Positions 42,194-49,641 of a stretch of 64,000 bases of DNA are shown here, one piece after another. The position numbers and the translations under genes are program-made. The stretch is taken from positions 64,001 to 128,000 of the forward strand of contig CAXXHO010000003.1 of the NCBI GenBank assembly GCA_963667725.2, given 5' to 3'. Every line of letters begins with the position of its first letter. Position 1 is the first letter of the stretch. A model generated the notes under the pieces. The model was not told the origin of the DNA, made no database searches, and saw only the letters and a program-made list of their open reading frames with translations. This DNA comes from Treponemataceae bacterium. Lineage in GTDB: Bacteria; Spirochaetota; Spirochaetia; Treponematales; Rectinemataceae.

Positions 42194-44149
42194 ATGCCCA
42201 GGCGGCTGCGCTTCATTCTGGCGGCTCTCGCGGGGCTGGTTTTTTCGGCGCTGCTTCTGCTCTCCGGCGCCGTCGAGGGAATCGATCAGACGCTTTACGA
42301 CATGACGGCGCGCGAGAGCGCGAGGATCGACCGCCGCGGGGAAGGGAAGGAAAAGCTCGGGAACGGCGGGGACTCCGGGCGCTTCGCTCCGGACGACGGC
42401 GCGGTGGAACTCATCTATATCGACCAATACAGTCTTGGCTGGGTGGAAGAAAACCTGGGGATAGCCTGGCCATGGCCCAGGGAGCTTTACGGCGTCATCG
42501 CGGCCTTCTGCTCGCAGGCGAAGGCTCAGGCTTTCGATATCATTTTCAGCGAGACATCGAATTTCGGTCCCGGCGATGATCTGCGCTGCGCCGCGGCCAT
42601 GGATGAGGCGGGCAACGTCGTCATCGCGGAGGCTCTCGATTCGCGCGGCGGGGGAAGCTTGAGGCCTCTGCCGACCGCCAAAGTGGATTTCGGCCGCGTG
42701 AAGGGGATTGTGGACAGCGATGGCGTCCTGCGCCGATATGACGTCGGGGCTGTTGAGGCTAGCGGCGGCGAGGGTGAGGCTAGCGGCGTCGAGGGTGAGG
42801 CTAGCGGCGTCGAGGGTGAGGCTAGCGGCGCTAGAAGCGGCGCTGGCGGGCGGGGCGCGGCTTCGCTCGGGCTCGCCATTCTGGCCAAGGGCGGCGATGT
42901 CCCGGCCAAGCTTCCTTCCGGCGATGTCTATCTGCGTTTCGGGGGCGCTTCGCCAACCCTGCCGGCGCGCAACGCGGCGGAAATACTCGCGAGCGCCATG
43001 AGTCTTCGGGAAGGACGCGAGCCGCAGGTTAACCCTGATGAATACGCGGGGAAATACGTTTTTATCGGCTTCTCGGCGCCGGGGCTCCTGGACAGGCAGG
43101 CCGTGCCGACGGATCAAGCGATGCCCGGCGCCGAGATTCACGCCACTTTCGTCGACAACGCGTTGCGGGGTCGGCTCCTCGGCACCCTGCCCGCGGCTAT
43201 AGAGCTGCTGCTTGTCTGCCTTTTCGCCCTGGGCGCCGCCTGGGCTTCCAATTACCTCAAAAAGCCCGCCTTCCTCACCGGCGGCGCTGCTCTTTTCGTC
43301 TTCCTTCCCGCGGCTTCAGGATTTGCCCTGTACAGAGCCGGCTATGTCGCCTCGGCGGGACTCGAGCTCTCCGCAGGGGCCTTTTCCTATGCGGCGGGGA
43401 TCATTCTTTCCTATGTCTCGGAGGGCAGGAACAAGGCCTTCCTGCGCCGCAGCTTTTCCCAGTACCTGGCTCCCTCCGTCATAGAAGCGCTCCTGCGGAA
43501 TCCGGGGCTTCTCAAGCTCGGGGGCGAGGAACGCACCCTGAGCGTGTTTTTTTCCGACATTCAGGGCTTCACCGCCTTGTCGGAGTCCATGAAGCCGGAG
43601 AAACTCGCCGCGTTCATGAACAGCTATCTCGCGATCGTCACGGGCGAAATTCTCGCGGAGGGTGGAACGGTGGACAAGTACGTCGGCGACGCTGTCGTCG
43701 CTTTCTGGAACGCCCCCCTGGACCAAGATGACCATGCCCTCAGGGCAGTCAGGGCCGCGCTCCGCTGCCAGAAAGCCCTGGGCGACGCTCGGGAAGTTTT
43801 CGCGGCCCTTGGCGTTCAGGTTCCCGTGACGCGGATCGGGATACATACGGGTAAGGCCATCGTGGGCAACATGGGCTCGCCCTCGCGCTTTAATTACACG
43901 GCGTTGGGCGATGTTGTAAATACGGCCAGCAGGCTGGAAAGCGCGAACAAGGCGACGGGGACGAATATCCTGGTATCGGGTGACACCGCGGCAGCGGCGT
44001 CCGGCGGCAGCCTCGTGTTTCGTCGTCTGGGCGAGATTCTCGTCCATGGAAAGAAAATCCCGATAGAAGTCTGGGAACCGCGCGACGCGGGAGAAAAACC
44101 CGGCGAAGCATCGCCATGGAGCGGCGTCAAGGACTGCGGCGCTGTCTAG
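42194..44149 (+). CDS. CHASE2-domain class III adenylate/guanylate cyclase
   Basis: CHASE2 motifs WPWPRE, FDIIFSE, DSDGVLRR, PGAEIHAT; three TM helices; cyclase motifs FSDIQGFT, DKYVGD, RIGIHTG, YTALGDVVNTASRLE. Confidence 0.9.
   Translation: MPRRLRFILAALAGLVFSALLLLSGAVEGIDQTLYDMTARESARIDRRGEGKEKLGNGGDSGRFAPDDGAVELIYIDQYSLGWVEENLGIAWPWPRELYGVIAAFCSQAKAQAFDIIFSETSNFGPGDDLRCAAAMDEAGNVVIAEALDSRGGGSLRPLPTAKVDFGRVKGIVDSDGVLRRYDVGAVEASGGEGEASGVEGEASGVEGEASGARSGAGGRGAASLGLAILAKGGDVPAKLPSGDVYLRFGGASPTLPARNAAEILASAMSLREGREPQVNPDEYAGKYVFIGFSAPGLLDRQAVPTDQAMPGAEIHATFVDNALRGRLLGTLPAAIELLLVCLFALGAAWASNYLKKPAFLTGGAALFVFLPAASGFALYRAGYVASAGLELSAGAFSYAAGIILSYVSEGRNKAFLRRSFSQYLAPSVIEALLRNPGLLKLGGEERTLSVFFSDIQGFTALSESMKPEKLAAFMNSYLAIVTGEILAEGGTVDKYVGDAVVAFWNAPLDQDDHALRAVRAALRCQKALGDAREVFAALGVQVPVTRIGIHTGKAIVGNMGSPSRFNYTALGDVVNTASRLESANKATGTNILVSGDTAAAASGGSLVFRRLGEILVHGKKIPIEVWEPRDAGEKPGEASPWSGVKDCGAV
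42754..42830. repeat. 21 bp coding tandem repeat, about 3.7 copies
   Basis: TGAGGCTAGCGGCG(G/T)CGAGGG units at 42754, 42775 and 42796, plus a partial unit at 42817. Confidence 0.95.
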
Positions 44150-46342: not shown

Positions 46343-47998
46343 GTGATTCCGATGAGCGAAAACAATCTCCGCGTGACTTTCGTCAGCCTCAATATAAAGG
46401 AAGACCGCGGCACCCTGCCCCTCGGGGCCGGCTGCGCGGCGACTTCCCTCCTGGCCGCGGGGCTGGCGCGCCGCGAAGATATATTCATCCTGGAAGCCTG
46501 CGTCGACGACGGAGAAGACGATCTTCTGCGCAGGATTGTCGAGAACCGCCCCCAGGTCGTGGGTTTTTCCCTCTACTGCTGGAATTCCACGACCTTCGCG
46601 TCGCTGGCTGAGCGGCTGAAGGCCGATTTTCCGGAAATTCTCCTCATCGCGGGGGGGCCGGACGCCGAACGCTTCGTGCCGGAGCGGCTGAAGGCGGAGG
46701 AGCCGGGGCTCTCATGCCGCTTCGACGCGCTCTTCCTGGGTGAAGCCGAGGCGAGCCTCCCCGCGTGGCTGGCGGCGACTGCGGCGTCCAGCCCCTCCAT
46801 CATTCGCGCCAAGCCCTGCGACGCGTCTTCACTTTCTTCTCCCTGGCTGGAAGGAATTCTGGAGCCCCGGCGCGGAGGGGCCGTGGCATGGGAGCTGACG
46901 AGGGGCTGTCCCTTCCGCTGCACCTACTGCTATGAAGGCAGGGGCTTTTCCGGCCTCAGGCACTTCCCCGCCGAAAGGCTGGAGAAGGAGCTGGAGCTTT
47001 TTACGCGAAGCGGCGTCAAGGAAGTCTTCGTCCTGGACCCCACCTTCAACACGCAGGGCAAACGTGCCATGTCGCTGCTGAAGTTCTTCGCGGAGAAGGG
47101 CGGGGATATAGACTGGTATTTCGAGATCCGCGCCGAGCTTCTCGACAGGGCGCAGGCTGAAGCCTTCGCCGCCATCCCCTGTTCGCTGCAGATCGGGCTC
47201 CAGAGCGTTCGTCCCGAAGTGCTGAAAAATATCGGCAGGCAGATGGACCGAAAAAAATTCGCCTCGAAAATCGGCCTTCTCAATCAGACGGGAGCCGTAT
47301 TCGGCCTGGACCTCATCTATGGACTGCCGGGCGATTCGCTTTCGGGTTTTCGCGAAAGCCTCGATTTTGCCCTTTCCCTGATGCCCAACCATCTCGACAT
47401 CTTTCCCCTTGCCGTCCTGCCCGGTACCACCCTCTACGGACAGAGCCGAGAATTCGTCCTCGAATTCGACAGCCAGCCGCCCTATCTGGTAAAAAGCCAG
47501 CCCGGCTTTTCCTCAGGCGATATGGACGCGGCGGCCAGGCTCGCCCGCGCCTGCGGAACTTTCTATACGAAGGGCAGGGCCGTTCCCTGGTTTCTGTCGA
47601 TCCTGAAGCCCCTGCGCATGTCGCCATCGGCCTTTCTGGCCGGATTCGACACGATGGAGACTCGAGGGAAGACGCGCGGGGAGGGACTGCCGTCGGGGCA
47701 CGCGGCGATCGAAGCCCTTCAGTGCGCGTACATTTCGCGGCTCTATGCGCGGCAGGGGAAAGATGACCTCCTGCCCGCCGCCCTGGATCTGCTGCGCTTC
47801 CACGGGGCATGGTCCAGAGCCTTCGCCGATGGCGAAGCGTCGAGGCTGGAGCTGACCTATCCTCTTCACCTGGTGGAAAGTCCGGAGATGCTGGATATCG
47901 AATATTTCCGCAGGCATAACGACCCTCATCCCTGCCGCGTTGCGATCATGCCGACGAAGGATGGCCCTCGCGCAAGAATTCTATCGAAACATGAATAA
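46343..47998 (+). CDS. B12-binding domain radical SAM protein
   Basis: VVGFSLYCWN..IAGGP, GEAE, TRGCPFRCTYC, LQIGLQS, DLIYGLPGD. Confidence 0.9.
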   Translation: MIPMSENNLRVTFVSLNIKEDRGTLPLGAGCAATSLLAAGLARREDIFILEACVDDGEDDLLRRIVENRPQVVGFSLYCWNSTTFASLAERLKADFPEILLIAGGPDAERFVPERLKAEEPGLSCRFDALFLGEAEASLPAWLAATAASSPSIIRAKPCDASSLSSPWLEGILEPRRGGAVAWELTRGCPFRCTYCYEGRGFSGLRHFPAERLEKELELFTRSGVKEVFVLDPTFNTQGKRAMSLLKFFAEKGGDIDWYFEIRAELLDRAQAEAFAAIPCSLQIGLQSVRPEVLKNIGRQMDRKKFASKIGLLNQTGAVFGLDLIYGLPGDSLSGFRESLDFALSLMPNHLDIFPLAVLPGTTLYGQSREFVLEFDSQPPYLVKSQPGFSSGDMDAAARLARACGTFYTKGRAVPWFLSILKPLRMSPSAFLAGFDTMETRGKTRGEGLPSGHAAIEALQCAYISRLYARQGKDDLLPAALDLLRFHGAWSRAFADGEASRLELTYPLHLVESPEMLDIEYFRRHNDPHPCRVAIMPTKDGPRARILSKHE

Positions 47999-48004
47999 AT
48001 ATGC

Positions 48005-48033
48005 TTGACATGCCGTCATACTTTCTGTATCGT
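48005..48033 (+). promoter_or_regulatory. sigma70-type promoter of the Asn leader/asparagine synthetase transcript
   Basis: TTGACA-N17-TATCGT. Confidence 0.75.
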
Positions 48034-48043
48034 GCCTGTATCT

Positions 48044-48130
48044 ATGAAGCGAAACGTGTTTAACGCCAACTCCAATCTTCTCAATAATAATAACGGAACT
48101 GCCGCAGCGGTGCCGGAGCTGTGCGCATAG
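48044..48130 (+). CDS. Asn-rich attenuation leader peptide, MKRNVFNANSNLLNNNNGTAAAVPELCA
   Basis: Manual translation: 8 Asn in the first 17 codons, including AAT AAT AAT AAC; lies between a promoter and a terminator upstream of the asparagine synthetase. Confidence 0.85.
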   Translation: MKRNVFNANSNLLNNNNGTAAAVPELCA

Positions 48131-48151
48131 ATAGATAAAGACTGAAATGGG

Positions 48152-48180
48152 ACCGGCCCTTTATGGGGCCGGTTTTTTTT
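48152..48180 (+). terminator. attenuator terminator (3:4 hairpin)
   Basis: ACCGGCCCT-TTAT-GGGGCCGGT with a T8 run at 48173-48180. Confidence 0.9.
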
Positions 48181-48381
48181 GGTCCGCGTCATTGGCGAAT
48201 GTCCTGAAAGCTTCTTGAAAGGAGGGCGGAGGATGATATTCAGTTATGGCATCCTCATGGGTAATGCGTTTTTTATCCATGACAGTTACCGGGGAATTTT
48301 ATGCGGATCCGTTTTTCGGAACGCATGCCTGATTCCGGCTGGATTAGGCCGGACAATGTAGGATGAAGAATAGGAATAACC

Positions 48382-49641
48382 ATGAAGACGATTAAAAGCA
48401 CGTATGAATATGCAGTTCCCGAAAAAGCCGAAACCATCGGCGCCGCCCTTGCCGATTGGAGGGATAGCCTGAAGGAAAAGGGAAGCTCCTTCAGCGGACA
48501 CCTGGGCAAGTATTATCTCGAAAAATGGAGCGATCCTCTCCTCGCCGATGTCATGGCCATACGCACGAGTTTCATACTCGCCATGCAGGAATTCCTGGCC
48601 GAGCGGGGATTGTCCAACATCGACAGGGTTTCGCTTTCGCCCATCACCGATCCACTCTGCCATGATGTCGAGCACGTGCCCGTCATTCACTACAAGGATG
48701 TGCCCTACCGGACGACGCATTCCATGATCTACTCGAAATTCCTGGCATGCGTGAACCCCGCGGTAAGGGGCGTGTTCATCGATTCACCCAACATCAGGCT
48801 GGAACTGCCTCATGAGGATGTCACCAAGCGGAAAAAGTACCTGATCGACTTTTCCCAGATGGATATGGAAGCGAAGCGTAGCGTCTATATATCGGATGAC
48901 GATTATTTCGACGATCCCGCGAAGGTTACGCTGCTGCTCGAGAAGGAAAGGGACGAGGCCCTGGATTTTTTCGAGGATCTGATCATTTCCGTGGTCAGGA
49001 AAGTGAAGGCCGCATGTCCCGAATGTCTCGCTTCCTTGGGCGTCGCGCTCGACGTTCCGCAGAAACCATTTCCGCGCTTCTATAAAGACGAATCCGGAGA
49101 CGACGAAGGACTCGAGGCGAGGCTTGGCGCCGCGGCGGGCACGCAGTTTTTCTGGGTGCTGGGACTTCTGAGGGAAAACTACGATCTTGTCTATCCCTTC
49201 CTCAAAAGGGACGGCTCGGTCAGTTCGGCCTCATCCATAAGCTCGCGCCAGGTTTTCAACTATGATCTCTGCGCCGCCGCTAAATATCTGGACGGTTCCT
49301 ATGGGGAGGCTTTCGAGGTGCTGTCGGGAGGCTTGAGGGAATGGTTCTATCCGGCGATCATCGCGCGCCTGCTGCAGAACGGCATTCTGTCGCAGGCGCC
49401 GCGCTTTGACGAACAGGGCGATATCGAGAATATCGAAGCCCTGGAAGGCTATGGCCCCTTCCTCTCCGCGGTGGCGGCCCGGACGCCCGAGGGGGAATCG
49501 CTCTTTCCCCAGACCTTCGGCGGCGGCATCGGCATCGAGAGAACCCTTTTCACGCTGCTGCAGGGACCTAAAATACACAGCATCGACGAGACTACGTTCT
49601 TCGGGAAGAATCCCGATCAACCGGGACCCTTCCTGTTCTAG
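48382..49641 (+). CDS. archaeal-type asparagine synthetase (AspRS/AsnRS catalytic-core paralogue lacking the anticodon domain)
   Basis: SPITDPL, THSMIYSK, IDSPNIRLE, DFSQMDME, NYDL, EVLSGGLREW, GGGIGIER; no N-terminal OB domain; the Asn leader upstream agrees with this function. Confidence 0.8.
   Translation: MKTIKSTYEYAVPEKAETIGAALADWRDSLKEKGSSFSGHLGKYYLEKWSDPLLADVMAIRTSFILAMQEFLAERGLSNIDRVSLSPITDPLCHDVEHVPVIHYKDVPYRTTHSMIYSKFLACVNPAVRGVFIDSPNIRLELPHEDVTKRKKYLIDFSQMDMEAKRSVYISDDDYFDDPAKVTLLLEKERDEALDFFEDLIISVVRKVKAACPECLASLGVALDVPQKPFPRFYKDESGDDEGLEARLGAAAGTQFFWVLGLLRENYDLVYPFLKRDGSVSSASSISSRQVFNYDLCAAAKYLDGSYGEAFEVLSGGLREWFYPAIIARLLQNGILSQAPRFDEQGDIENIEALEGYGPFLSAVAARTPEGESLFPQTFGGGIGIERTLFTLLQGPKIHSIDETTFFGKNPDQPGPFLF

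Follow-up and report, generated by a model that had tools for sequence, protein, structure and literature searches.

The window analysed here (the whole 64,000-nt stretch of DNA under study) carries at 46343..47998, on the + strand, a B12-binding radical SAM gene that serves as context only, other genes standing in its place in relatives, and at 48382..49641 (+) a gene for a 419-aa protein with a class II aaRS-like catalytic domain but no anticodon domain, which most closely resembles archaeal asparagine synthetase A (AsnA); the gene is probably monocistronic, the next one being convergent. Between them, on the same strand, lie a predicted sigma70-type promoter, TTGACA-N17-TATCGT (48005..48033), with 10/12 of the consensus, in an 800-nt scan that returned 2 promoter-like sites against 0.8 expected; a 28-codon ORF with eight Asn codons (48044..48130), which lacks a Shine-Dalgarno (SD) sequence, starts 10 nt past the -10 box and would therefore be nearly leaderless; and an intrinsic terminator (48150..48180; stem 48150-48175, T8 at 48173-48180). 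Asn occupies leader codons 4, 7, 9, 11 and 14-17, the last four forming a run of putative control codons, AAT AAT AAT AAC (48083..48094), that ends 11 codons ahead of the stop. A 1:2 (anti-antiterminator) hairpin is predicted at 48094..48115, and segment 2 (48109..48116), the candidate 5' strand of an antiterminator, can pair with 48153-48159, which is segment 3 and the 5' arm of the terminator. The sequence-only reading had placed the promoter, ORF, Asn run, hairpin and terminator just so, and all of these positions hold; it had made no mention of the missing SD or of the short distance from the -10 box to the leader. It had also described a complete attenuator, a reading that is supported, but the attenuator does not account for all of the 5' region, which contains a second conserved element (48221..48265, +), considered below.

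Six nt past the radical SAM stop, the -35 box supplies a TTG that shares the reading frame of the leader, so that read-through transcripts could load leader ribosomes by a second route; this in-frame TTG is not kept in divergent-neighbour contexts. The terminator is the one terminator-like site found in 47600-48400 and therefore probably also ends radical SAM read-through here. Farther upstream, an adenylate cyclase-like ORF (42194-44149) contains a short repeated Gly-Glu-Ala-Ser-like motif (window 42700-42800).

The Asn-rich leader at 48044-48130 is not a chance feature. Among the 79 short ORFs found ahead of 277 terminator-like sites in this genome it ranks first for Asn enrichment and third for enrichment in any single residue (binomial p 7e-7), and neither the leader nor the second element was found in further copies in this genome. 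Asn-rich upstream ORFs in relatives, which the sequence-only reading had proposed as a test, do occur: the gene is present in 25 of the 101 genomes searched, and in 23 of these related genomes the leader, together with promoter and terminator, recurs ahead of it, the other two being cut off upstream. The 22 genome-collection loci comprise 15 with a leader, one cut off and six distant ones (49-52% identity) without, and the best 80 of 380 metagenome loci, duplicates included, comprise 41 with a leader (one having only the second leader of a tandem), six that are too short and 33 without. In more distant Spirochaetota the enzyme stands without a leader in all 29 loci fetched, one of them with just 179 nt upstream. 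Seven metagenome loci with near relatives named Holophaga/Holophagaceae form the sister clade of the enzyme, the joint clade having a support of 0.993 in a tree rooted at its midpoint, where many '_no' labels within the leader clade mark duplicates or truncated loci and not losses. The leader of the sister clade differs in sequence, and in 5/7 of these loci antitermination was modelled to be highest with the ribosome on the Asn run; one more leader, L097, lies outside that clade.

An alignment of 26 distinct leaders (A1) carries a translation signature. Asn accounts for 156 of 680 leader residues (22.9% vs 2.9% in the genome, a 7.9-fold enrichment), and AAY triplets fall 156 times in the leader frame against 5 and 12 times in the other two. 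The leaders are 25-29 codons long and vary in length by whole codons, end in TAG (20), TAA (5) or TGA (1), and all 26 keep a distance of 10-13 codons from the end of the Asn run to the stop. None of the 26 is preceded by an SD-like word, and the -10 box lies 6-11 nt from the leader start. TTGAC stands 35-40 nt 5' of the start in every case; it was the anchor of the leader search, with its spacing constrained only to a range of 30-70 nt.

The secondary structures differ in how well they are supported across A1. The terminator is 97.8% paired, with 25 two-sided changes spread over 6 of its 11 pairs, a level matched by 0/500 shuffles, while the covariation of the antiterminator is modest, with 18/500 shuffles equally high and the sequences related to one another; the stem covariation for which the sequence-only reading had proposed a test is thus strong for one stem and limited for the other. 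The antiterminator register itself is conserved: 90.4% of it is paired, whereas slid registers reach 27-57%. Its CCGG:CCGG core is almost invariant, one A:U/G:C exchange occurs, and the duplex beats shuffled sequence (p<0.05) in 12 of the 26 leaders. The pairing of segment 2 with segment 3 forms in modelled nascent RNA when the ribosome-covered part is blocked, as had been proposed, but shuffled sequence pairs as strongly as the window's own duplex (p 0.38); judged from its sequence the window's antiterminator is weak, and it is conservation that argues for it. The 1:2 hairpin appears in the unconstrained fold, followed by the terminator (z -2.9 for the whole region), but there it is nested within a larger 5' domain that closes through pairing of 48042-48051 with 48122-48130 (the start-codon region with the ORF end), and the hairpin is 73.7% paired across A1, where a slid control scores similarly. 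On the modelling, the off state is better described as this larger 5' domain burying segment 2 than as the short 1:2 hairpin.

When the full-length RNA was folded to equilibrium with the ribosome region blocked, the terminator was present in nearly all states listed. Such folding cannot show the switch, and we therefore folded nascent RNA, that is, RNA reaching as far as the terminator loop, with the ribosome footprint blocked. Because the terminator wins at full length, the switch must be kinetic, as it also is in classical attenuators. With a stall on the Asn codons, the median probability that the terminator arm is captured was 0.85-0.87 over the 26 leaders, 20-23 of which exceeded 0.5 over three footprints; in untranslated leaders the median was 0.11, with 20 of the 26 below 0.5. 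The corresponding values for the window are 0.64-0.77 with a stall and 0.11 untranslated. Five leaders (L006, L007, L041, L046 and L047) showed low modelled antitermination on the main run at the +13 footprint. Capture stops about 4-5 codons past the Asn run in the model; the zero capture at the stop codon follows from how the RNA was blocked and is not evidence. The modelling thus agrees with the earlier proposal that a stall on the Asn run frees segment 2, but stalling at any other point within the first ~20 codons would likewise permit the antiterminator, which means that specificity would come from codon content and not from a geometry specific to the run.

Past the terminator, the second conserved element consists of an SD sequence, GGAGG (48221-48225), a 7-bp stem (48229-48235 with 48250-48256) around an ATG (48233), and in-frame Gly-Asn codons at positions 10-11 (48260-48265) of an ORF that reaches 48361 in the window and whose end is not conserved (12 to >55 codons). 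GGAGG, the 7-bp stem enclosing ATG or GTG and the in-frame Gly-Asn at codons 10-11 recur at 17 of the 26 loci, in a search that did not require Gly-Asn; at seven the enzyme starts directly after the terminator, and at two a second full leader with terminator stands in place of the element, L089 being a third tandem. The motif is absent from one close relative, L067. In 30 second-element sequences, chosen by a pattern that requires the motif, 96.7% of the stem is paired; its one A:U/G:C exchange (15 vs 15) probably reflects a single event. Their Asn codon is AAT in 23 and AAC in 7, and where 3 nt are deleted the frame is retained. Folding gave no support to the idea that the element switches the enzyme start site: accessibility of that site changed inconsistently in the seven sequences folded, going up in three and staying flat or going down in four. 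At the tandem loci (L046, L047 and L089) the second Asn-rich ORF is longer and has an SD and its own terminator, and these second leaders gave low antitermination on Asn codons in simple folding. The second element may be a second sensor or a relic of a tandem leader.

The 419-aa enzyme matches no Pfam family and scores below the NCBIfam cut-offs for archaeal AsnA (PRK06462; 111 vs 309 bits and 59 vs 368 bits), yet archaeal AsnA is its best sequence match, and its predicted fold (pLDDT 87.8) has 3reu, 3rex and 3rl6 as top Foldseek matches (E 2-4e-19). S114, K119, R139, E141, F157, Q159, D161, D268, E312, R319 and R387 are invariant in 52 homologues, in keeping with retained active-site motifs. 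Pyrococcus asparagine synthetase A (PDB 3p8t/3reu/1nnh) is, in the passages of PMC3532385 that describe it, likewise a class II aaRS-like domain without an anticodon domain, with conserved motifs, but it has 294 residues, ~125 fewer than the protein here, to which it is 24% identical with a query TM-score of 0.57. The asparagine synthetase label given on first reading is thus favoured by fold and remote homology while falling short of the family cut-offs, and on sequence and predicted structure the enzyme is probably, not certainly, an ammonia-dependent Asn synthetase. It represents a separate bacterial subfamily, with 965 matches among the 7997 candidates scored, more distant relatives included. 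At four leaderless distant loci (L019, L100, L101 and L103) the AsnA-like gene lies, by eye, directly 3' of the end of a gene that looks like glutamine synthetase, a neighbour that would fit a role in nitrogen assimilation.

The host genome encodes AsnRS over cut-off and GatB not over cut-off, from which it follows that charging of Asn-tRNA should track free asparagine; a partial gatB-like match, under cut-off, lies within a 692-codon frame (G000:C5:129523-130317). An E. coli-type asnA and two asnB genes lie on another contig of the genome (contamination estimate 6.3%), so the cell may not depend on the AsnA-like gene. No Asn leader was found before any of these three genes, nor before the genome's asnS and aspS.

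A covariance model of A1 matched 42 of the 69 family genomes, and 20 of the listed matches were opened. In all four genomes of one genus (G007, G026, G037 and G045) a homologous Asn leader precedes gatC-like/gatA/gatB/aspS genes (L205-L208, L225-L228); gatB is over cut-off there and gatA just under it, and the last gene of the set had the score of a non-discriminating aspS in the two genomes, of the four, in which it was tested. The AsnA-like enzyme is absent from all four genomes, which also have AsnRS. A tandem pair of Asn leaders stands before a second asnS at L223 (G041), and in three sister-family genomes Asn leaders precede aaRS-like genes (L234-L236; G098, G089 and G531), the one tested being closest to asnS; those at L234 are apparently also tandem. 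Genes over cut-off downstream of a homologous leader are thus gatB, non-discriminating aspS and asnS, and the presence of the leader on gatCAB-aspS and on a second asnS points independently to Asn as the signal. That the same leader occurs on the AsnA-like gene in most genera, and on gatCAB and aspS in a genus without it, suggests that these are probably interchangeable routes of Asn-tRNA supply.

Weaker matches of the model were His leaders (hisG), Ile/Val leaders (ilvB, ilvC) and two non-leader terminators. This genome has a His-rich leader before hisG (G000:C3:1496139, L058) and an Ile/Val-rich leader before ilvB (G000:C5:1110621, L059). Both look unannotated and lack an SD; TTGAC lies ~40 nt upstream of each and a terminator follows, and other family members have homologues. 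The screen of 79 short ORFs picked up both of them, with the promoter spacing of the Asn leader, so leader-peptide attenuation seems to be in general use in this organism. Also among the weaker matches, a Leu-rich leader and terminator precede a gene that reads as leuA-like in another family of the order (L237, G377). Two Ile-rich leaders stand back to back on divergent ilvB and ilvC at L209/L210 (G036:C4:15666-16094). The SD-less attenuators with Asn, His, Ile/Val and Leu codons, in single and tandem designs, would form a natural set for direct tests.

Taken together, the element is very likely a ribosome-mediated transcription attenuator that senses Asn-tRNA(Asn) supply through a leaderless or nearly leaderless peptide, and on the modelling the enzyme would most likely be turned on when charged asparagine tRNA is short. 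Judging from the spacing, transcription would begin only a few bases ahead of the leader AUG, on which a ribosome would initiate without an SD. With plentiful Asn-tRNA, the modelled ribosome proceeds to the stop and covers segment 2 (48109-48116), so that the terminator at 48150-48180 would form and transcription would end. With Asn-tRNA short, a ribosome waiting on the Asn codons would open the 5' domain and leave segment 2 free to capture 48153-48159 before the 3' arm of the terminator is made, a kinetic step after which polymerase would enter the AsnA-like gene. An untranslated leader would keep segment 2 buried and terminate. Charging that tracks free asparagine would close the feedback loop. 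Three RNA runs of doubtful value yielded scattered contig pieces only, which speak neither for nor against this scheme.

Several other explanations bear on parts of this reading. The leader could be translated and switch the terminator while the signal is the decoding speed of AAU, set by queuosine or another modification of tRNA-Asn or by the general translation rate. AAT does make up 107 of the 156 leader Asn codons, with AAC the other 49, against an AAT share of 39% in the genome's long ORFs, and the modelled antitermination by any stall within the first ~20 codons would suit such a signal; but AAC is freely used in the leaders, A/U-rich codons may be kept so that the region stays unstructured, and the genes controlled serve Asn or Asn-tRNA supply in every case examined and are not modification genes. 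We therefore regard decoding speed as an improbable signal. A different doubt concerns the enzyme, which might be another amide ligase or an Asn-consuming enzyme, in which case the switch may run the opposite way. Its sub-threshold scores, its extra length and low identity relative to archaeal AsnA and the presence of other Asn synthetase genes in the genome would allow this, but the top sequence and fold matches are to archaeal AsnA with the matched motifs invariant, the GatCAB route is under the same leader in genomes without the enzyme, and folding ties read-through to stalling, not to passage. Such a function seems quite improbable.

The (AAY)n tract might alternatively be the site of an RNA-binding regulator, with the ORF incidental. 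Consistent with this, the tract is single-stranded in the folds and an SD is lacking throughout A1; against it, start, frame and stop are kept, length changes come in whole codons, AAY is concentrated in one frame, and these spirochaetes have similarly built leaders for His, Ile/Val and Leu, all of which makes a protein-binding tract very improbable. The last alternative, which the sequence-only reading had itself named as a refuting outcome, is that the hairpin does no more than terminate the radical SAM gene, the Asn run being a matter of chance. It has almost no probability left: although the hairpin is the sole terminator-like site in 47600-48400, the element has its own promoter and persists in 7 of the 26 aligned leaders where the neighbour is a divergent bioY gene, with no same-strand gene upstream, and behind unrelated same-strand genes elsewhere, so it is not just a radical SAM terminator, and as a sole explanation this one is refuted by conservation in relatives and in divergent contexts.

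Returning to attenuation by a ribosome on the Asn-rich leader, we consider it possible, though doubtful, that the 5' region as a whole is a two-stage Asn sensor, in which a second, different checkpoint read by ribosomes comes after the leaderless Asn-run attenuator. This checkpoint would comprise a start codon hidden in a hairpin and, at a set distance from it, a single Asn codon, while lacking a conserved stop or terminator; its mechanism would be undescribed, and some relatives would have a second full attenuator in its place. If the attenuator is what it appears to be, classical attenuation extends to asparagine, and to Spirochaetota and Holophagaceae, and the leader annotates an uncharacterised bacterial enzyme subfamily.

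Control that matches Asn or Asn-tRNA synthesis to supply has the same purpose in Asn T-box riboswitches and in AsnC/Lrp regulation of asnA. The present element differs in that it has no T-box match in Rfam and that sensing would be done by a translating ribosome. Neither the leader region nor any of six related loci scored above the cut-off of an Rfam family (the best leader match being Thr_leader, 17 vs 55 bits), nor was the gathering threshold reached for the Trp, His, Thr, Leu or Phe leader families or the T-box. Lopatovskaya et al. 2010 reportedly list no asn genes or spirochaetes. The sequence-only reading knew of no characterised Asn leader-peptide attenuator on this enzyme type, and the openly available literature searched yielded no Asn leader attenuator either. 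The main texts of PMC2965389, PMC8632094, PMC11109978 and 10.1101/834739 contain neither Asn nor asparagine, and that of PMC4833913 does not contain Asn; their supplements could hold such a motif. A 2010 survey (PMC2965389) placed amino-acid leader peptides in Proteobacteria and Actinobacteria, with Firmicutes as a new addition, and in no other phyla.

The mycobacterial polycysteine leaderless ORFs (Ms5788A), as the main text of bioRxiv 10.1101/834739 describes them, resemble the Asn element in having a sensor ORF at or near the 5' end, no SD and a readout of charged tRNA; they act on translation by hiding a downstream SD, while the Asn element has a covarying intrinsic terminator. The closest likeness in architecture is to the classical leader-peptide attenuators trpL, hisL, thrL, leuL, ilvL and pheL/pheM (mechanism in the main text of bioRxiv 10.1101/834739), which share a short ORF rich in codons for the product of the pathway, competing pairings (2:3, 3:4 and, as a putative feature here, 1:2), an intrinsic terminator and a biosynthetic gene downstream. 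The defining features of this class that can be tested, namely a leader enriched in Asn codons, a terminator, an antiterminator (conserved in its complementarity and formed in the modelling, though weak in the window) and an Asn-supply gene (for the homologous leader by scores over cut-off, for the window's gene probably, by fold and remote homology), are present, in agreement with the trp/his-type architecture first proposed. The differences are the Asn control codons, the missing SD, the spirochaete and Holophagaceae hosts, and the second Gly-Asn element or second full leader past the terminator. The mechanism is thus very likely the textbook trp/his switch, and what would be new is its specificity for Asn.
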